Below, piece by piece: positions 1-12,452 of a stretch of DNA of 31,472 nucleotides. Source of the DNA: a virus (taxonomy: Duplodnaviria > Heunggongvirae > Uroviricota > Caudoviricetes); the IMG/VR virus record IMGVR_UViG_2585427730_000006, positions 1 to 31,472 of that record, one strand, 5' to 3'. Position numbers and translations under genes: made by a program. The notes under the pieces are model-generated. The model made no database searches, was not told the DNA's origin, and saw only the letters and a program-made list of their open reading frames with translations. Position 1 is the stretch's first letter; every line of letters begins with the position of its first letter.

Positions 1-1335
<1,335 letters not shown>

Positions 1336-1617: not shown

Positions 1618-2313
1618 TTAATCACTTAAGGAATGAAGTGAGGCTCGTTGTGCAGAGGTTAAGCTAAGGAGGATTTTTTCTCGATACTCAGGTGCAAAGG
1701 AAAAGAAAACATCAGGAAAAATTCTTATGATAGTTGATATCATAGTCTTAACCACCTTATCAATCACCTTCGAAATATTATCTATTTTAACCAAGTCTAT
1801 TTCGGGAAAAACATTTAAAGCTTTTATGTGAGCCATTTCTTTTACAGTAGCTGTATGTACGTGACTGCATAACGAAGAGTATTCAGCTTTTAAAGTTTCA
1901 TGTAGTAGAGGATTTTTTTTGAAGACAGGATGTTCCCCAGTTTGTTCAATTACCTTAAACAATGATTTTTCTTCAAGTATTGAAGGATCTAGTAAGCAAC
2001 CGATTGATTTTAAAGAATTTTCAATATAACTTCGCATCATTAGATTTGCTGGTTTGTATGCACCATTTATAACCATAAACATAGCTGTACCAAGGTCAGA
2101 TGAAGCTTCTTGCAATCGCTCCAATGAGTTGGCGTCTATTTTCTCCTTGGAGAAATGATACAAACAGTAAACAAGGCACATAAAAGAATAATATCTCTTA
2201 TGTATCATGCTTATTTTCCCTCTTGAGTTAATATTCTCGAAAACATTTTTTAATTTATATTCAGAGAAATAAGTAACTAACTCAGTGAAATCGCTGTTTA
2301 CTTCTCTCGACAT
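1618..2313 (-). CDS. Hypothetical protein, 231 aa, third gene of the ParA-like operon
   Basis: Long ORF in AT-rich DNA, 2 nt from the upstream gene stop, same strand; no recognisable motif. Confidence 0.7.
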   Translation of the reverse strand: MSREVNSDFTELVTYFSEYKLKNVFENINSRGKISMIHKRYYSFMCLVYCLYHFSKEKIDANSLERLQEASSDLGTAMFMVINGAYKPANLMMRSYIENSLKSIGCLLDPSILEEKSLFKVIEQTGEHPVFKKNPLLHETLKAEYSSLCSHVHTATVKEMAHIKALNVFPEIDLVKIDNISKVIDKVVKTMISTIIRIFPDVFFSFAPEYREKILLSLTSAQRASLHSLSD

Positions 2314-2315
2314 TG

Positions 2316-2822
2316 TTAGTCCTTATTGAATATATCTTTTATAACTTCATTCCAGTCATATATCTCATTTTGAGCGCTAGAAAGGTTCTTCCTCTCTTTT
2401 ATTCTACTCAAAACTAGAGGGTTATTTGACATTGAATTGATAATATTATAAGCCTTACCTAAATCGGATGAGTTTTTCTCGTGAACGTCACACACGATTA
2501 TGCCGATCATTTCCTCTCTAGATCTTTTTTCAGGCCTGCTGATTTCGATACCTAACATGCGTGCAAAATCATCTATATCTTTATTTTTTTGGAAGAGATC
2601 TTTGTCTAATAAAATCCTCGGAAGATACCCAACAAGGAAACCTTTAATATCATTTTTTTTGGACTTTGAATTTCTTTCGTTAACTTCTAAATTATCAGTA
2701 TAACTATCTTGAAGTAATTCAATAAAGTTGATTCTTGATAATTTTTTTGAAATAAAGGAAAACTCCTCTAAAAAGTTTAACAGTTGCTTAATTTCTTTTG
2801 AGTTATTTTTTTTGTCAGTCAT
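2316..2822 (-). CDS. Hypothetical protein, 168 aa, Lys/Asn-rich, second gene of the ParA-like operon
   Basis: ORF whose start overlaps the ParA-like stop by 4 bp (ATGA), suggesting translational coupling; no recognisable motif. Confidence 0.7.
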   Translation of the reverse strand: MTDKKNNSKEIKQLLNFLEEFSFISKKLSRINFIELLQDSYTDNLEVNERNSKSKKNDIKGFLVGYLPRILLDKDLFQKNKDIDDFARMLGIEISRPEKRSREEMIGIIVCDVHEKNSSDLGKAYNIINSMSNNPLVLSRIKERKNLSSAQNEIYDWNEVIKDIFNKD

Positions 2823-3649
2823 AAGTCACCTACTCTAGAGAGAAGTTCGTCAGTAATTTTAGACAGCGAAAACTTCATATCCTCATCCGTTAAATTGTTA
2901 ATAAATAAGCCTCTTGTTTGATTTCTTGCCAACTCAGTACGTTTGCTCAAATATGATTTAAAGATCTTATTACGCCAACGTTTTTGATTATTGAAGTAAC
3001 GAAGACTTTCCTCATATAAATTACTATTACCTTCAACCATATTAAAAACTATGCCCGCACATTCAATCTTAAGATCGAAATTTTCTCTCTTCTCATTTAT
3101 AATGCTATCTAATAGATCGATACCAGTGATCGAAAGAGGATCGGGTTTGGCTGGAATGAGGTAATAATCAGATGCAATTAATGCGCTGGACATCCAAACT
3201 GATGGGGTTGGTGGGGTATCAATTATGACATAATCATAGTCATTTTCATGGATTTTAAGAAAGCGTCTAAGCTTGTTTTCTATCCCTTCTCCTGGTTTCA
3301 TTTCAATTTTATATAGCCCAAGGCTTCCGGGAACAATGTGAAAATTATCATTTAATTGAATTGGTGTTATATCGGCTAATTCTTTAGGTGTGTTAACTAA
3401 AGGACCAGTCATTGTAGATAGTCGAATTTTTGAACTATAAAAAATATCACATATGCTATCGCCTCCGCTTTTCATATGTGCAACATATTTGCTTGTATCC
3501 ATTACACATTGCGTTGCGTTAAATTGTGGGTCGATATCTATTAATAATATTTTTTGCCCAAGTTTATCTGAAAGATGATTAGCAATATTGGTAGCCAATG
3601 TTGACTTACCAACGCCACCTTTCATATTGATTAAGCTAATAACTTTCAA
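2819..3649 (-). CDS. ParA/Soj/MinD-family P-loop ATPase, 276 aa
   Basis: Deviant Walker A KGGVGKST at residues 10-17, LIDIDPQ motif, hydrophobic strand ending in DTPP (YVIIDTPP); no N-terminal HTH extension (type Ib-like architecture). Confidence 0.85.
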   Translation of the reverse strand: MKVISLINMKGGVGKSTLATNIANHLSDKLGQKILLIDIDPQFNATQCVMDTSKYVAHMKSGGDSICDIFYSSKIRLSTMTGPLVNTPKELADITPIQLNDNFHIVPGSLGLYKIEMKPGEGIENKLRRFLKIHENDYDYVIIDTPPTPSVWMSSALIASDYYLIPAKPDPLSITGIDLLDSIINEKRENFDLKIECAGIVFNMVEGNSNLYEESLRYFNNQKRWRNKIFKSYLSKRTELARNQTRGLFINNLTDEDMKFSLSKITDELLSRVGDL

Positions 3650-5264: not shown

Positions 5265-6311
5265 GTGCGGGTATTACTTCGACCTGTTCTGGTACCGGAA
5301 CTCGGGCTGGTGATCGTTAAGCCGGGCCGGGAATCCATGCCGGTATTCCACAATACCCGGGTACTGGTGGAGCCGGAACCAAAAAGCATGCGTAATCTGC
5401 CGTCCGGGGTCGTTCCTGCCGTTCGCCAGCCGCTAGTGGAAGACAAAACATTGCTGCCGTTTTTCAGTAACGCACGGGTGATTCGTGCTGCTGGTGGTGC
5501 TGGTGCATTGTCTGACTGGCTGTTGCGCCATATTAAATCCTGCCAGTGGCCTCATGGTGATTACCATCACAGCGAAACCGTCATACATCGTTACGGTGCT
5601 GGCGCGATGGTGTTGTGCTGGCACTGTGACAACCAGTTGCGTGACCAGTCCTCCGAATCACTTGAGCAACTTGCTCACCAAAACCTGTCAGCATGGATGA
5701 TTGATGTCATGCGCCATGCAATGAATGGCACACAGGAGCGGGAATTATCGCTGGCTGAATTATCCTGGTGGGCTGTCTGCAATCAGGTGGCGGACGCACT
5801 ACCGGAGGTAGTATTACGTCGTTCTCTGGGGTTACGTGCGGAAAAAATTCGCTCGGTGTACCGCGAAAGCGACATCGTACCGGGAGAGCAGACCGCCACC
5901 AGCATACTGAAGCAGCGCACAAAAAATCTTGCGCCGCTGCCTCACGCCCACCAGCAAAATCCACCACAGGAAAAGACGGTGGTCAGCATTGCTGTTGATC
6001 CGGAGTCTCCGGAATCTTTCATGAAGCGACCTAAACGTCGCCGTTGGGTAAATGAGAAATATACGCGCTGGGTAAAGACACAGCCGTGTGCGTGTTGTGA
6101 TAAGCCAGCCGACGATCCCCATCACCTGATTGGTCATGGTCAGGGCGGAATAGGGACAAAATCCCACGATATTTTCACGCTACCGCTGTGTCGGGAGCAT
6201 CACAACGAGCTTCATGCGGATCCGCTGGCGTTCGAAGAAAAGCATGGTTCCCAGATTGATTTAATTTTTCGTTTTCTTGATCGCGCCTTTGCAACCGGCG
6301 TGCTCGGGTAA
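5265..6311 (+). CDS. DUF968-family protein (YdfU-like) with a C-terminal HNH-like Cys/His motif
   Basis: 348-aa ORF, apparently GTG-initiated 2 nt after the previous stop; C-terminus CACCDKPADDPHHLIGHGQ...CREHHNELH; size and position match YdfU-type proteins of lambdoid nin regions. Confidence 0.75.
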   Translation: MRVLLRPVLVPELGLVIVKPGRESMPVFHNTRVLVEPEPKSMRNLPSGVVPAVRQPLVEDKTLLPFFSNARVIRAAGGAGALSDWLLRHIKSCQWPHGDYHHSETVIHRYGAGAMVLCWHCDNQLRDQSSESLEQLAHQNLSAWMIDVMRHAMNGTQERELSLAELSWWAVCNQVADALPEVVLRRSLGLRAEKIRSVYRESDIVPGEQTATSILKQRTKNLAPLPHAHQQNPPQEKTVVSIAVDPESPESFMKRPKRRRWVNEKYTRWVKTQPCACCDKPADDPHHLIGHGQGGIGTKSHDIFTLPLCREHHNELHADPLAFEEKHGSQIDLIFRFLDRAFATGVLG

Positions 6312-6323
6312 AAGAGGTTACTG

Positions 6324-6695
6324 ATGCGTATAGAGTTTGTTTTGCCTTCCCCGCCGACGGTGAACACCTACTGGCGTCGTCGTGGCAGCACATATTTTGT
6401 ATCAAAAGCCGGTGAGCGTTATCGCCGGGATGTGGCACTTATTGTCCGCCAGCAGCGGCTGAAATTAAACCTGTCCGGAAGGCTGGCAATAAAAATTACT
6501 GCAGAGCCGCCGGATAAGCGCCGTCGGGACCTGGACAATATCCTGAAAGCACCGCTGGATGCACTGACGCATGCGGGGCTTCTCATAGACGACGAGCAGT
6601 TTGATGAAATCAATATTGTGCGCGGTAAGCTCGTTCCTGGTGGTCGGCTGGGCGTGAAGATTTGCGAAATTAGAGGTGATAGTAATGGGGCGTGA
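6324..6695 (+). CDS. rusA: RusA-family Holliday junction resolvase
   Basis: 123 aa; catalytic-region motif RRRDLDN and overall resemblance to RusA; AAGAGG RBS upstream of ATG 6324. Confidence 0.85.
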   Translation: MRIEFVLPSPPTVNTYWRRRGSTYFVSKAGERYRRDVALIVRQQRLKLNLSGRLAIKITAEPPDKRRRDLDNILKAPLDALTHAGLLIDDEQFDEINIVRGKLVPGGRLGVKICEIRGDSNGA

Positions 6696-7038
6696 TATGT
6701 ATGAGGTTTTAGACCGCTGGGGGGCATGGGCTGCAGCAGAAAATAGTGGTGTCGATTGGCAACCGATAGCAGCGGGCTTCAAGGGGCTTTTACCTCATGG
6801 TAAAAAGTCACGGATTCAGTGTGATGATGACGAAGGCATTATGATAGACAGTTGTGTGGCTCGGTTGAGAAGGTATAAACCAGAGGAATATGAGCTCATC
6901 ATAGCCCACTTTGTTATTGGTATCTCATTACGCACTATTGCCAAAAAGAGAAGGTGTTCAGATGGCACGATTAGAAAGGAATTACAAACTGCAATTGGTT
7001 TTGTAGAGGGTATTACGAGCGTTATTGCATGTAAATAA
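6685..7038 (+). CDS. Late antiterminator Q, QuuD-type
   Basis: Translation (MGRDMYEVLDRWGAWAAAEN...WQPIAAGFKGLLP...CDDDEG...CVARL...CSDGTIRKELQ) matches the pattern of DLP12 QuuD. Start taken as ATG 6685; GTG 6676 is an alternative. Overlaps the rusA 3' end. Confidence 0.75.
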   Translation: MGRDMYEVLDRWGAWAAAENSGVDWQPIAAGFKGLLPHGKKSRIQCDDDEGIMIDSCVARLRRYKPEEYELIIAHFVIGISLRTIAKKRRCSDGTIRKELQTAIGFVEGITSVIACK

Positions 7039-7042
7039 AAGC

Positions 7043-7072
7043 TAAAAGCCACCGTAGTGGCTTTTAGCATTT
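7043..7072. terminator. Bidirectional-looking hairpin immediately after Q
   Basis: aaaagccac-cgta-gtggctttt with A-run on one side and T-run on the other; could terminate both Q (+) and the convergent 427-aa gene (-). Confidence 0.5.
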
Positions 7073-7244
7073 TAGGATTGTGCAGGTAATGTTTTGTTCA
7101 ATTTAGTAAAGAAGTTAGATTGGCTTGTTACAGTACGTCGACTCTTTCCAGAAGTACTCAACTGAAAGAAATCATTGATGCTTTTGGGTTGAGTTCTTTC
7201 ATAGGCTTGCTTAAGTGACATGTGTTCCCCTTGTCTATTTGTTG

Positions 7245-8528
7245 CTATGACCGTGAAAAGTAGTGATGGTTCAGTTCTTTTGCAAAATAGTGCTTACGTT
7301 TAACCCAGATAAAACCATCAGCTTTAGAAATGATTGCAACATCTATGGGGCCTCCCACTGTTTCAGTATCATCGGAGACCTTGCGCTTGAAAGCGGTTAA
7401 ATTTACTAATGATTCAGCCATATAAGCTAAATCTTGCTTGGGTAAAAACTCGATCATATTTACGACTTTGTCAACATAGTTTTCTCGGACAAAGCTATCA
7501 ATACGCCCCTTGCAATCGGAAACAGTTCTGCGCACTACATCAACTATAGCATCCTTGGCTCCTTCGATATCTGAAGTGGGCACCAAATCTGTGATTACTG
7601 AATCAATACCATCAAGTAAATCGCCGATAGAACGTTGATACTCAGCATGAAGATTTTGGATAAGATGTGAACTAGCTCCTTGCATGAAAGCAGAAACTTC
7701 ATCCTCTTGCGCAAAGGGAGTCACGCCGCAATTAGGAGTGATGCAGCACTTGTCAGCATCTGTGGTTTTCCTTATTTTATCATTAAAGAAGCCACAAACT
7801 TCATATGATAATACTTTAGGGTAATAGTCTTTATCGCCATAACCTGCAATCACAATCCCAGAGACGGAACCAATATCACTTTGCTTGCATATCATAGCTG
7901 CCAATACATCACTAACTGCTTTTGTCAACTGTGGAGTTATGGATATTGAATCAAAGTCACTAAACTTTTGAGCAATGATGCGTTGGGTAATTGATGAAGC
8001 ATAGGTTTGGGCTGCTTGTTCATCATCCGGAGTAAAACCATCAAAGTAATTAATATCAGATAATTTTGTAAGGAGATCGTTGCAATAATTCGTGAGGTCT
8101 GTAACAAATTGATTCTTATCGAAGTTAACGAGATATGTTGGTTCGAGACCTTCAGAAAAAGCATCAACAAGCATGCTGAATACAATCTCGCTCAGGAAGT
8201 GATAAAGATGAGCCTCACGCATACCTGGTGTGATGATTGATTTAGCTGACTGTAGATAATTGAAGAAATCCTCAGCATATTCCTCCAAAGAGTCAAAACA
8301 TTTAGAGCCTAAATCCTTTCTATAAGCCTTAATGATAAGCTCCCATGGAGCTGTGCAGAGATCACCAGTTCCATATACCATCAAACCTACAGGATGATGT
8401 TTAGTGAGAGCGAAAAGCTTTTCAGCGCCATTATAGATTTTATGTTTGCCGCCTCCAGAAATCGTTACAGCTGAATCTGCGGCTAAAGCTACTGCGGTCT
8501 TGTTAAATACGGCTATTTCTGCTGTCAT
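7245..8528 (-). CDS. Hypothetical protein, 427 aa; possible divergent proteasome-beta/HslV-like Ntn hydrolase with large insertions (inference only)
   Basis: Long ORF in visibly lower-GC DNA, opposite to late-gene orientation. N-terminus MTAEIAVFNKTAVALAADSAVT...GAEKLF aligns by eye with the proteasome-beta/HslV N-terminal segment (Thr1, acidic residue 17, Lys before LF); C-terminal GGPIDVAIISKADGF resembles the proteasome-beta GG.IDVAVI.KDG motif. Confidence 0.8.
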   Translation of the reverse strand: MTAEIAVFNKTAVALAADSAVTISGGGKHKIYNGAEKLFALTKHHPVGLMVYGTGDLCTAPWELIIKAYRKDLGSKCFDSLEEYAEDFFNYLQSAKSIITPGMREAHLYHFLSEIVFSMLVDAFSEGLEPTYLVNFDKNQFVTDLTNYCNDLLTKLSDINYFDGFTPDDEQAAQTYASSITQRIIAQKFSDFDSISITPQLTKAVSDVLAAMICKQSDIGSVSGIVIAGYGDKDYYPKVLSYEVCGFFNDKIRKTTDADKCCITPNCGVTPFAQEDEVSAFMQGASSHLIQNLHAEYQRSIGDLLDGIDSVITDLVPTSDIEGAKDAIVDVVRRTVSDCKGRIDSFVRENYVDKVVNMIEFLPKQDLAYMAESLVNLTAFKRKVSDDTETVGGPIDVAIISKADGFIWVKRKHYFAKELNHHYFSRS

Positions 8529-8636
8529 TTTTTACATAGGGTTTATATGTTGTGTAATGAGAAAAATACAAAAAAATTAACGCGTACGCAAAAATTCTTG
8601 TAATCTGTTAAGAGTGGTTACTTCGCCACACAGCTT

Positions 8637-8668
8637 AAACCCGCCGTCGAGCGGGTTTTTTTGTACCT
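8637..8668 (+). terminator. Rho-independent terminator on the + strand
   Basis: aaacccgc-cgtcga-gcgggttt followed by tttttt; the upstream neighbour is on the other strand, so the terminated transcript is unidentified. Confidence 0.5.
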
Positions 8669-8784
8669 GTAAACTTGGTGCAGTACGGTAAACACGCTGG
8701 TGGTAGTGAATACTGACTTTTTATCTTGCTGGCTTTTTAGACAAGAGTTATTGGTATGTCATGTTAACCAGAAGGGAAAAAGAC

Positions 8785-8979
8785 ATGCTAAAACAGCAAG
8801 ATATGACAGAAACGGCGAAAGTTGTTTTTAATGAATTAAGCATCGAACCGGCAACAGTCGGGGAGATTGCACAAAACACATACCTTTCACGCGAACGCTG
8901 TCAGTTAATACTGACCCAGTTGGTTATGGCGGGGCTGGCAGATTACCAGTTCGGCTGTTACAGACGTCTTCAGCAATGA
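8785..8979 (+). CDS. Small hypothetical protein (64 aa from ATG 8785), possible HTH/winged-helix regulator
   Basis: ORF directly upstream of the methyltransferase gene; purine-rich stretch before ATG 8785; segment ATVGEIAQNTYLSRERCQLILTQL resembles an HTH. Start uncertain (track ORF begins at 8761). Confidence 0.4.
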   Translation: MLKQQDMTETAKVVFNELSIEPATVGEIAQNTYLSRERCQLILTQLVMAGLADYQFGCYRRLQQ

Positions 8980-9128: not shown

Positions 9129-10175
9129 ATGAAAAATACTGTAAAAATAAACAGTGTTGATTTAATCAACGCTGATTGCCTGCATTTTATTCAGTCCCTG
9201 CCTGATGATTCCATTGACCTGATTGTTACCGATCCGCCTTACTTCAAGGTGAAACCCAACGGTTGGGACAATCAGTGGAAAGGGGACGAAGATTACCTTA
9301 AGTGGCTGGACCACTGTCTGGCCCAGTTCTGGCGGGTGTTGAAACCTGCCGGAAGCCTTTACCTGTTCTGTGGGCATCGCCTGGCATCTGATATCGAAAT
9401 CATGATGCGTGAACGCTTTAATGTGCTGAACCACATTATCTGGGCGAAGCCGTCCGGACGCTGGAACGGATGCAACAAGGAAAGCCTGCGGGCGTATTTC
9501 CCGGCAACAGAGCGCATTCTGTTTGCTGAACATTATCAGGGGCCATACCAGCCCAAAAATGACGGCTATGCGGCAAAGGGGCGCGAGCTTAAACAGTGCG
9601 TCATGGCCCCGCTGATTTCTTACTTTCGTGATGCGCGAGAATCTCTGGGAATAACATCAAAACAGATAGCGGAAGCCACCGGAAAGAAAAACATGGCGTC
9701 ACACTGGTTTGGTGCCAGTCAGTGGCAGTTGCCGAACGAGGCTGATTACAAAAAACTTCAGGCGCTGTTCGCGCGTGTTGCAGCAGAAAAACACCAGCGC
9801 GGGGAGCTGGAAAAGCCGCACCACCAGCTGGTCAGCACATACAGTGAACTGAACCGGCAATATGCCAGCCTGCAGGAGGAGTATAAATCCCTGCGGCGTT
9901 ATTTTTCCGTATCAGCTGCTGTTCCGTATACGGATGTCTGGACGCACAAGCCTGTGCAGTATTATCCAGGCAAACATCCCTGTGAAAAACCGGCAGATAT
10001 GTTGCGTCAGATAATTACTGCCAGCAGTCGCCCCGGTGATTTGGTCGCTGATTTTTTTATGGGGTCTGGCTCAACAATAAAAGCAGCACTTTCACTGGGA
10101 CGTCGCGCAATTGGCGTGGAACTGGAAGAAGAGAGATTTAATCAGACTGTAACTGAAATAAAAAATAATCGTTAA
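9129..10175 (+). CDS. Orphan DNA methyltransferase, beta-class (N6-adenine or N4-cytosine)
   Basis: Motif IV DPPY (IVTDPPYF) near the N-terminus and motif I FxGxG (FFMGSGST) near the C-terminus, the circularly permuted beta-class order; no adjacent restriction endonuclease gene visible. Confidence 0.85.
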   Translation: MKNTVKINSVDLINADCLHFIQSLPDDSIDLIVTDPPYFKVKPNGWDNQWKGDEDYLKWLDHCLAQFWRVLKPAGSLYLFCGHRLASDIEIMMRERFNVLNHIIWAKPSGRWNGCNKESLRAYFPATERILFAEHYQGPYQPKNDGYAAKGRELKQCVMAPLISYFRDARESLGITSKQIAEATGKKNMASHWFGASQWQLPNEADYKKLQALFARVAAEKHQRGELEKPHHQLVSTYSELNRQYASLQEEYKSLRRYFSVSAAVPYTDVWTHKPVQYYPGKHPCEKPADMLRQIITASSRPGDLVADFFMGSGSTIKAALSLGRRAIGVELEEERFNQTVTEIKNNR

Positions 10176-10343: not shown

Positions 10344-10419
<76 letters not shown>

Positions 10420-10422
10420 TAT

Positions 10423-10497
<75 letters not shown>

Positions 10498-10884: not shown

Positions 10885-11201
10885 CTGAACTCAGAAAAGA
10901 ATACACGGGCATTGATATTACCCGTGTGGCAAGGCCATGAAAGCCAATAATGAACTGAGCGCAAAAAAAGCGCGGCTGTCGGATTAACGCCGCGGGACAA
11001 AGTCCGTGAAGAAGAATAAGCATCAGTCTCCTCCAGGAGACGATTTGATATTACTAAGCTTTAAAAATGGTTTAAACCCCCGGATTAACCTTAATTTCAG
11101 ATAAGCTTTATTTCATTTTCTCCGAGCCACGTCAGGCGCATATCACATCAGATAACACCACATAAAAGGTATCTGCGGGTGCCTTTCACGGGGTGTTTTT
11201 T

Positions 11202-11228
11202 TACGGGCCGCTGGTGGCCCTTTTTTAT
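11202..11228 (+). terminator. Terminator-like hairpin immediately upstream of the lysis cassette (candidate tR'-type element)
   Basis: gggcc-gctggt-ggccc followed by ttttttattt, ending ~15 nt before the holin RBS. Confidence 0.5.
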
Positions 11229-11244
11229 TTACAGGAGAAAAAGT

Positions 11245-11637
11245 ATGTCTGAACCCTTATCCGGTTCCGGCACGGCTGCAGCGCTCGGCGGGGCGACGGT
11301 GTACGGGCTGTTTACCGGAACGGATTTCGGGATTGTGTTTGGTGCCTTTGCCGGGGCGTTATTTGTGGCAACGATGCCGCAGGCGCTTTCAGCCTGGCGT
11401 GTGGCGGCACATTTTCTGGTGTCGTTCATTGTTGGTGTGCTGGGGGCAGAAGTTCTGGCATCCTGGCTGGTAAAGCATACAGAGTTTGACGGTGCACCTG
11501 TCGACGCATTGTGTGCAGTACTGGTGTCAGTGGTGTCGGTGAAGATTCTCTCGTTCATCCACCAGCAGGATATTGCATCACTGGTGTCCGGTCTGTTCTC
11601 CCGTCTGCGGGGCGGAGGAGGCGGCAATGTTAAGTAA
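11245..11637 (+). CDS. Putative holin, 130 aa, multi-TM
   Basis: AGGAG RBS before ATG 11245; several Gly/Ala-rich hydrophobic segments; first gene of the lysis cassette. The track ORF starts earlier, at 11179. Confidence 0.55.
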   Translation: MSEPLSGSGTAAALGGATVYGLFTGTDFGIVFGAFAGALFVATMPQALSAWRVAAHFLVSFIVGVLGAEVLASWLVKHTEFDGAPVDALCAVLVSVVSVKILSFIHQQDIASLVSGLFSRLRGGGGGNVK

Positions 11638-11905
11638 CCTTCCCGGATTGCTGAATGTGGCGTTATGCACGGTTATCGTGCTGACGCTCTTTTTTTATCG
11701 TCGTCGTGATTCCAGACATAAACCGTTGATGTCATGGCTGGCCTGGCTGCTGATGCTGCTTTATGCCTTTGCACCACTCAGTTATCTGTGCGGTCGCCCG
11801 TTAGCGGCGAACTGGCTGGCGGTGGGGCTTAATCTGCTGTTCTGCGTGTTGGTTATTCGCGCACGCGGGAACGTTTCAAAAATCTTTGTATTACGAAGAC
11901 GCTGA
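11627..11905 (+). CDS. Small multi-TM membrane protein, 92 aa (second holin or antiholin-like)
   Basis: ATG 11627 overlaps the upstream stop; three hydrophobic segments and a basic C-terminus (RARGNVSKIFVLRRR). Confidence 0.5.
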   Translation: MLSNLPGLLNVALCTVIVLTLFFYRRRDSRHKPLMSWLAWLLMLLYAFAPLSYLCGRPLAANWLAVGLNLLFCVLVIRARGNVSKIFVLRRR

Positions 11906-11906
11906 T

Positions 11907-12452
11907 ATGAAGTCGAAAGATGAAATTTTTGACGAAGTTCTGGGAAAAGAGGGCGGTTACGTCAATCACCCGGATGATAAAGGCGGACCGACAAAATGGG
12001 GTATTACGGAAAAAGTCGCCCGCGCTCACGGATATCAGGGCGATATGCGTGACCTGACACGCGAACAGGCACTGGAAATCCTTGAGGCGGATTACTGGTT
12101 CGGACCACGCTTTGATCAGGTGGCCGCATTATCCTCTGATATTGCTGCAGAGTTGTGTGATACCGGTGTGAATATGGGGCCGTCCGTAGCATCGAAAATG
12201 CTCCAACGCTGGCTGAACGTTTTCAACCTGCAAGGCAAATTGTTCCCGGATATGGACGCAGACGGGCGTATCGGCCCCCGCACGATTAATGCACTACGGA
12301 CTTATCTGCAAAAACGCGGCAAAGACGGCGAACTGGTGATGCTGAAGGCGCTGAATTGCACGCAGGGCGACCGCTATCTGGAGCTGGCAGAAAAACGCGA
12401 GGCCAACGAGTCGTTTGTCTACGGCTGGATGAAAGAGCGCGTAGCAGTTTAA
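11907..12452 (+). CDS. Endolysin, glycoside hydrolase family 108 with C-terminal peptidoglycan-binding domain
   Basis: N-terminal signature EGGYVNHPDDKGGPTKWGIT typical of GH108 lysozymes. Start set at ATG 11907; TTG 11886 is the alternative. Confidence 0.8.
   Translation: MKSKDEIFDEVLGKEGGYVNHPDDKGGPTKWGITEKVARAHGYQGDMRDLTREQALEILEADYWFGPRFDQVAALSSDIAAELCDTGVNMGPSVASKMLQRWLNVFNLQGKLFPDMDADGRIGPRTINALRTYLQKRGKDGELVMLKALNCTQGDRYLELAEKREANESFVYGWMKERVAV

Follow-up and report, generated by a model that had tools for sequence, protein, structure and literature searches.

A proteasome-like hydrolase of PMI type and a small linked reading frame as a putative mobile cassette behind the antiterminator Q gene of a lambdoid phage

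The stretch of DNA considered here (the window) comprises positions 1 to 31,472 of IMG/VR record IMGVR_UViG_2585427730_000006, 31,472 nucleotides (nt) from a virus of the Caudoviricetes. It contains, directly behind the gene for antiterminator Q, a reverse-oriented gene for a 427-amino-acid (aa) protein related to proteasome subunits (hereafter, the hydrolase), followed on the same strand by an open reading frame (ORF) for a 49-aa protein (the partner). The reading favored here, to which slightly more belief than doubt is attached, is that the two constitute a mobile cassette, in which a proteasome-family threonine hydrolase and a small regulator or substrate act in phage–host conflict. An earlier note on this DNA, made without database searches, had placed a reverse-oriented 427-aa gene between Q and the lysis genes, and this position is confirmed, with the ORF at 7245-8528 on the minus strand and the genes for Q, holin, and endolysin on the plus strand. 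The gene and its segments are located as follows:

7245..8528, minus strand: hydrolase gene, 427 aa, ATG start; predicted proteasome-family N-terminal-threonine (Ntn) hydrolase of PMI type ("Proteasome homolog with Multiple Insertions")
8418..8525, minus strand: codons of the N-terminal catalytic segment (Thr2 at 8523-8525, Asp18 at 8475-8477, Lys37 at 8418-8420)
7884..8246, minus strand: helical insertion 1, about residues 95-215, after core helices H1/H2 (helices of the model at 101-214)
7449..7676, minus strand: helical insertion 2, about residues 285-360, a long hairpin between H3 and H4 (helices at 287-315 and 318-360)
7311..7355, minus strand: codons of the near-invariant C-terminal strand pair, G392-F406 (GGPIDVAIISKADGF), which aligns to GGMIDVAVITRKDGY of archaeal beta

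Alignment by HMMER and hhalign places Thr2, Asp18, and Lys37 of the hydrolase on Thr1, Asp/Glu17, and Lys33 of the proteasome. In a set of 144 distinct homologues taken from all phyla, archaea to Firmicutes, the residues T2, D18, S19, K30, and K37 are each kept in 143/144 sequences, and G393, P394, D396, D404, and G405, close to the C-terminus, are conserved at 98-100%; such values lie far beyond chance. The first family alignment likewise showed M-T-A-E-I-A, D18, K37-L-F, and VGGPIDVA..SK.DGF as invariant. Both termini had been likened by eye to those of proteasome beta subunits and HslV in the earlier note, and in both cases the residues are borne out. The threonine after methionine, the acidic residue at 17, and the lysine before LF are M1-T2, D18 (17 after Met loss), and K37-L38-F39, and the C-terminal segment compared with GG.IDVAVI.KDG is the strand pair G392-F406, pairing with GGMIDVA of Thermoplasma acidophilum beta.

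The start of the protein is well defined. Nearly all homologues begin with MT at their own residue 1, and MTAE is found internally where gene callers had extended the N-terminus. No N-terminal extension or propeptide of the window protein is possible, because an in-frame TAA lies two codons before the ATG (atg taa aaa ATG). A minimal start-stop element (ATG TAA) is thereby present at 8529-8540 on the minus strand, in frame and two codons 5' of the hydrolase ATG; no recognizable Shine-Dalgarno sequence was seen in the leader at these positions. This leader is not conserved among relatives, most of which have purine-rich ones. Removal of Met1 would be expected, since methionine aminopeptidase favors a small residue at position 2, as with Escherichia coli HslV. 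It would expose Thr as mature residue 1, the putative nucleophile of a peptide hydrolase, with D18 and K37 (the equivalents of Asp17 and Lys33) assisting it. Judged by these residues, the hydrolase is probably active as a threonine protease.

The comparison of a structural model with proteasome folds, suggested in the earlier note, speaks for the same assignment. The AlphaFold model built on 112 homologues (predicted local distance difference test, pLDDT, 83.7; predicted template modeling score, pTM, 0.79) was searched with Foldseek against the PDB, and each of the top 50 matches is either Anbu or a proteasome subunit, in most cases beta. A core-only profile, that is, the 144-sequence family profile with both insertions excised, was aligned by hhalign with the T. 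acidophilum beta subunit, the target sequence being checked against 3c91_H (203/203 identical). The alignment covers 180 columns, end to end, at 26% identity (E 4.2e-5, probability 70%), and pairs T2/T1, D18/E17, K37/K33, and GGPIDVA/GGMIDVA, the T. acidophilum residue being given second. A weak HMMER alignment, obtained by profile hmmsearch of the PDB (archaeal beta, E 1.4), agrees with this pairing. Model and profiles together support an alpha-beta-beta-alpha Ntn sandwich like that of proteasome subunits. The by-eye assignment of the earlier note, which a fold unrelated to the proteasome sandwich would have refuted, is upheld. A phmmer search of the PDB with the hydrolase found nothing, nor was any match obtained in BFVD, a library of viral structures; in PHROGs there is a full-length match to phrog_5990, a family of unknown function.

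The insertions set the hydrolase apart from its conserved core. The earlier note had taken some 330 residues in the middle of the protein for insertions, which holds in so far as this part consists mostly of two helical insertions, the first a helical bundle of ~120 residues and the second of ~75 residues; the Cys-rich stretch CCITPNCG, which the earlier note had included, is not conserved in the family. As a functional motif, CCITPNCG was considered and dropped: it is kept in the closest relatives only, and the consensus elsewhere is KSSxxGxSG. Compared with the window protein, homologues have a mean identity of 0.17 in insertion 1 and 0.20 in insertion 2; for the core blocks the values are 0.60-0.79 (N- and C-terminal) and 0.40 (middle). 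Both insertions are hypervariable, and an invariant active site is wrapped in fast-evolving helical modules. The insertions probably form a cap or a module for oligomerization and recognition, and a classical closed 20S-like barrel is probably incompatible with them. A catalytically dead scaffold is opposed by the invariance of the Thr, Asp, and Lys residues.

The second component of the proposed cassette lies between the hydrolase gene and Q:

7072..7221, minus strand: 49-aa partner ORF (MSLKQAYERTQPKSINDFFQLSTSGKSRRTVTSQSNFFTKLNKTLPAQS), 23 nt after the hydrolase stop, with the Shine-Dalgarno sequence AAGGGG
7041..7068, minus strand: intrinsic terminator, a 12-bp stem followed by a T-run, which closes the two-gene operon just past the Q 3' end

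The partner ORF of the window has no RefSeq annotation. The same arrangement of hydrolase and small ORF is found in Alteromonas, Vibrio, a Providencia phage, and a Streptococcus satellite, and in a census of 177 loci with enough downstream sequence, a small ORF starts within 60 nt of the hydrolase stop in 175 of them, its start often overlapping the stop. The most widespread sequence type, called here the main type, was matched by its profile in 72 of the 177 loci and in 0/583 decoy ORFs. It spans ANME (anaerobic methanotrophic) and Methanosaeta archaea to Clostridia, Planctomycetes, and Nitrospirae. These partners have ~55-75 aa, with a basic N-terminus, the pattern (Y/F)-x-S-phi-x-E-(F/W/Y)-E-(K/R)-x-(Y/F)-(F/L)-P-(K/R), and an amphipathic helix; starts that overlap the hydrolase stop occur at offsets of -4, -14, -20, and -23, and in some gene-call and RefSeq tables the ORF is left uncalled. 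The partner in the window belongs to another family (35 loci, 12 distinct proteins, no link to the 583 decoys) with the pattern M-x-L-K-Q-x-[FY]-[EQ]-[RK]-x-Q-P-K-S-x-x-D-F-F ... N-F-F-T-x-L. Nucleotide differences in this window-type family number 64/46/119 at codon positions 1/2/3, and the excess at the third position argues for a protein under purifying selection. The conserved small partner appears to be a new finding. No third conserved gene stands beside the pair, as the largest neighbor cluster reaches 4/65 loci, and a Pfam scan of the partner gave no match and detected no DNA-binding domain. Binding of the partner to the hydrolase is considered likely.

A pair so tightly coupled, with no other conserved neighbor and found on mobile elements, could also be a toxin–antitoxin-like addiction module, with the threonine protease as the toxin and a small labile partner restraining it, so that the element is stabilized and defense is secondary. 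The partner is basic, fast-evolving, and looks disordered, and Zeta-toxin and other genes of toxin–antitoxin type are among the neighbors of the family, all of which fits such a module. However, most type II systems have the antitoxin gene first and an antitoxin with a DNA-binding domain, of which none was detected here, and in many phyla the pair also stands on the chromosome, in surroundings that do not look mobile; we therefore regard the addiction module as unlikely. The motif of the main-type partner brings in a further explanation, that the hydrolase is a connectase-like transpeptidase or processing enzyme and the small protein its substrate, cut or ligated at a short motif (F-E-K-x-Y-F-P-K in the main type). 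Connectase cuts KD|PGA, and by likeness, a cut in the main-type partner might fall before Pro. We give this explanation rather little weight. Both the addiction module and the connectase-like enzyme overlap mechanistically with the favored model of a hydrolase and its small regulator or substrate.

The third line of evidence concerns the place of the cassette, which has two features of the phage backbone on its far side:

8563..8615, minus strand: backbone element facing the slot, ACTCTTAACAG...TTTTTGCGTACGCGTTAATTTTTTTGTATTTT, with TTGCGT at 8586-8591, a 17-nt spacer, and TATTTT at 8563-8568
8637..8658, plus strand: backbone intrinsic terminator (found by scan), the far edge of the slot

The backbone element, which includes the palindrome GCGTACGC, is conserved 5' of the hydrolase in 9 divergent phages. 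In phage Stx2a_WGPS2 the same element stands 5' of an unrelated reverse two-gene cassette, gp27 (343 aa) and gp26 (179 aa), neither of which has a PADLOC match. Because the same element precedes unrelated reverse cassettes, the interval behind Q can be recognized as a slot for the exchange of cassettes, into which a fixed promoter-like element points. The homology to phage SfV starts at the 8637-8658 terminator, within an SfV region that has an annotated terminator. Although a consensus promoter scan misses the promoter pair of the backbone element, its arrangement suggests that it works as a promoter for the cassette. On the plus strand, the element may also hold a Q-dependent late promoter, from which an RNA of ~55-60 nt ending at 8658 would arise.

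Among viral contigs, 31 have Q on the strand opposite to the hydrolase (45-100% identity), and there the distance from the hydrolase stop to the Q 3' end is 196-231 nt, which is exactly what the small ORF plus terminator occupy. On the other side the contigs differ, with phrog_331/Dam, TerB, or holin as the neighbor, and in Cronobacter prophages the hydrolase also occupies the Q-adjacent slot. Such a strict tail-to-tail linkage with Q could be taken to mean that the cassette is an accessory beneficial to the phage, which either counters defense by degrading a host immune protein or tunes the lysis–lysogeny decision or late genes. In line with this, Providencia phage PSTRCR_117lys has the hydrolase in forward orientation between Q/Dam and holin, and sewage-isolated Stenotrophomonas phages carry the pair next to the lysis genes. 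Against it, the cassette is found on satellites, integrative islands, and archaeal and bacterial chromosomes where there is no Q gene, and the Q-adjacent slot takes unrelated cassettes too, which is why the linkage with Q probably reflects an insertion hotspot and not a functional tie. A phage-beneficial accessory is thus considered quite improbable.

The distribution of the cassette bears on its function more broadly. It was found in 9/5,426 complete E. coli genomes and occurs in prophages of enterotoxigenic E. coli, and the hydrolase has 225 relatives in IMG/VR. In Alteromonas, the pair is cargo on a satellite-like island with an integrase and a GPA-type replicase, and in Serratia, on a likewise satellite-like integrase island with AlpA and a Toprim/VapE primase. 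Streptococcus satellite phages have the pair at or near their end, among the last genes, and in Vibrio it adjoins a type I restriction–modification (R-M) system. In other phyla, the flanks are mixed and include R-M methylases, Eco57I-type enzymes, rve integrases, Zeta toxin, and housekeeping genes. Since almost every bacterial phylum has members of the hydrolase family, as do methanogen/ANME archaea, and some of these members adjoin housekeeping genes, one could think of a housekeeping or stress protease of the kind of HslV, Anbu, or BPH that hitch-hikes on mobile elements. This explanation, together with that of a dead scaffold, is held very unlikely: the patchiness within species, as in E. 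coli above, the low GC content, and the carriage as cargo speak against it, and the neighbor census revealed no AAA+ or other recurrent partner.

Directly 5' of the hydrolase, a 396-aa protein is encoded in 3/4 island variants of Vibrio parahaemolyticus, and a 435-aa protein in the same position in Pectobacterium. The Vibrio protein has no Pfam or PADLOC match and the Pectobacterium protein no PADLOC match. They may be lineage-specific components or independent cargo.

For the favored cassette of a threonine hydrolase with its small partner, the following course of events is proposed. The cassette would be read from the conserved backbone element and ended by the terminator next to Q. Which targets are recognized, or how the protein assembles, would depend on the hypervariable helical insertions, and the small basic partner, closely linked or translationally coupled to the hydrolase, would bind the enzyme as a regulator, inhibitor, gate, or dedicated substrate. 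The outcome would be regulated proteolysis in conflict between phage and host or between phages, that is, defense, exclusion, or abortive infection. As a claim of its own, involvement in the conflicts of phages, satellites, and hosts is advanced tentatively, with doubt the stronger side, and it is suggested by the moron and satellite cargo slots, the R-M-adjacent islands, the patchiness, the low GC content, and the hypervariable periphery. The wider version of this proposal assumes a widespread two-component system of anti-phage or inter-element immunity in bacteria, archaea, phages, and satellites, built on a partner-gated threonine protease with helical sensor insertions; we consider it speculative and on the doubtful side. 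A more exotic variant of the immunity reading is connectase-like tagging or ligation that uses the small protein.

Several observations weigh against the favored reading, some concerning the protein and others its context. The earlier note had proposed a search with the PF00227 profile, and the hydrolase has no match to it or to any other Pfam family even at E up to 10. NCBIfam gives no match either, PADLOC (PADLOC-DB 2.0) gives none at E up to 1, and the likeness to HslV seen by eye is not recovered by profile, as hhalign of the 112-sequence family profile with E. coli HslV finds nothing. For Gly47, Ser129, Asp166, and Ser169, any assignment of equivalents is uncertain: by alignment, G48 (90%) or G53 (76%) are candidate counterparts of Gly47, and in the profile alignment the position of GSG is taken by A273-Q274, with [E/D]389-[T/S]390 directly before the GG pair. 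The S2-S3 loop (residues 21-35) is poorly modeled, with pLDDT <50. As for the partner, the positional criterion (an ORF of at least 30 aa near the stop) is weak alone, being met by 54% of control genes, and for this reason it is sequence conservation and not position that is decisive. Homology between the window-type and main-type partners was not detected, either by iterative searches with hidden Markov models (HMM) or by hhalign (probability <1%), and the two are treated as positional analogues. The link to mobile elements and defense is clear only in gamma-proteobacteria and streptococci, and a Pfam and PADLOC census of 125 flanking ORFs gave a heterogeneous picture with no dominant defense signature. 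To our knowledge, the large published screens of defense islands have not flagged this family, abundant as it is.

The remaining genes around the cassette define its neighborhood as a lambdoid late-control region, followed after the lysis genes by the terminase and lambda-like head and tail genes:

5265-6311, plus strand: DUF968/HNH gene
6324-6695, plus strand: RusA gene
6676-7038, plus strand: antiterminator Q (phrog_79)
8761-8979: gene for a phrog_331 protein, beyond the reverse hydrolase gene
9129-10175: DNA methyltransferase gene, beyond the phrog_331 gene
10344-10497, plus strand: tRNA-Thr(TGT) and tRNA-Gly(TCC), between the methylase and lysis genes
11179-11637, plus strand: holin gene
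11886-12452, plus strand: endolysin gene

The lower GC content claimed for the gene in the earlier note is confirmed, with 0.37-0.41 over the hydrolase gene (~0.39) as against 0.52-0.56 on the nin/Q side and ~0.52 in the methylase; the flanks taken together have 0.53. The same note had likened the location to the cargo slot of Shiga toxin (Stx) phages. The cassette does lie just behind Q, but not at the exact stx site, as stx of Stx2a_WGPS2 is situated further downstream, past the methylase and tRNAs. In Stx phages, ileZ-argN-argO precede stx, a position matching that of the tRNA-Thr/tRNA-Gly pair of the window. An identical region is present in E. coli strain H3, within a prophage adjoining ydfJ, where RefSeq lists the hydrolase as hypothetical protein WP_000123148.1. 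Genes for a BCCT transporter and a full-length DUF2254 protein, together with hokD, are further found in the H3 prophage, and the adjoining ydfJ is truncated; we take the ydfJ neighborhood to be the chromosomal region of the Qin prophage in K-12. At the left end of the window (913-1335, plus strand) there is a fragment of a DUF2254 membrane protein. A second reverse block, of three genes, lies in the early region (1618-3649, minus strand) and encodes a ParA/AAA_31-type ATPase (2819-3649), then proteins of 168 aa and 231 aa that belong to no Pfam family. PADLOC reports a weak, partial match of the ATPase to PDC-M28B (E 4e-5), and the block may be another accessory or defense-like cassette.

PMI proteins are among the largest families with a confident prediction of a catalytic fold and no known biology. 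What the analysis offers for this family are handles, namely an obligate small partner missed by annotation, hypervariable insertions around an invariant active site, and recurrent carriage in moron and satellite positions. With them, what was an uncharacterized homologue becomes a two-component system that can be tested in E. coli, a tractable host. If the cassette is an immune or addiction module, then threonine-protease chemistry extends into phage–host conflict, in parallel to the proteasome in eukaryotic immunity, and if the immunity reading is correct, a proteasome-like enzyme would for the first time have an immune role in prokaryotes. Further cargo systems can also be mined in the Q-adjacent slot, where reverse cassettes are swapped next to a fixed promoter-like element.

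The earlier note had not recognized the family to which the hydrolase belongs. It was, however, catalogued computationally in 2021, when Fuchs, Alva and Lupas described 22 new families of proteasome homologues found by iterative searches (Bioinformatics 37:4694; PMC8665760). Among them are PMI-1 to PMI-6, some of which occur in phages, and all of the new families lack a propeptide (PMC8665760). In PMI-3 and PMI-4, H1/H2 are followed by a long insertion, and the insertion that separates H3 from H4 is shared by PMI-2 to PMI-6; insertions 1 and 2 of the hydrolase match these two sites, respectively (PMC8665760). PMI-4 is the largest group, with 501 sequences at nr90, and is distributed over Proteobacteria, Firmicutes, Actinobacteria, Bacteroidetes, PVC (Planctomycetes–Verrucomicrobia–Chlamydiae), Cyanobacteria, other bacteria, Euryarchaeota, and phages (PMC8665760). 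The genome and phage scans made here recover exactly this taxonomic spread. A word-indexed search gave >6,300 family matches, uniformly unannotated, and an exhaustive profile search gave 6,016 clusters at 50% identity, nearly all of them aligned from their own residue 1. As the insertion sites, the abundance, and the spread over phyla and phages match, the hydrolase family fits PMI-4 (representative sequence HDY66466.1), a filing made by architecture and distribution. The fold is therefore not new, and the hydrolase is a member of a catalogued, functionally blank branch of the proteasome superfamily; the authors report neither informative genomic context nor function (PMC8665760), and literature searches for a functional study of the family found none. 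Like PMI-4, the hydrolase has a proteasome-like core, the Thr1/Asp17/Lys33 triad, no propeptide, and insertions after H1/H2 and between H3/H4, with none between S3 and S4 (by the order of the model). What that work says of PMI-4 includes neither the small partner ORF nor the Q-adjacent slot or the cargo positions on satellites (PMC8665760), and it is the small partner and the cassette as exchangeable cargo behind Q that are new.

The comparison can be extended to the better-known members of the superfamily. In contrast to the 20S proteasome beta subunit (PF00227, MEROPS T1), the hydrolase is more than twice as large, has the two helical insertions of ~120 and ~75 residues, and lacks a propeptide, an alpha-subunit partner, and a match to the PF00227 HMM. 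Ring assembly of the hydrolase may be sterically hindered (PMC8665760). HslV (ClpQ), with 176 aa, belongs to the chromosomal core, and its gene lies with that of the AAA+ partner HslU, whereas the 427-aa hydrolase is mobile and patchy, and no AAA+ neighbor was seen in the census of flanking genes. Anbu and BPH are compact (~185-240 aa), without large insertions and with no known unfoldase; Anbu belongs to a conserved operon and BPH forms double rings, and neither is known as cargo of phages or satellites or with a small coupled partner. Connectase, the archaeal proteasome-like protein ligase, has its insertion at S3/S4, lacks H1/H2, and is restricted to methanogens, and its substrate is MtrA, unlike the small adjacent ORF found here. 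PPH is, like the hydrolase, a proteasome-like protein of tailed phages and prophages (PMC8665760). It is a minimal protein of group I (HslV/BPH-like) without helix H2, while the hydrolase is ~3 times longer, carries insertions, and, if it is indeed PMI-4, would fall into group II.

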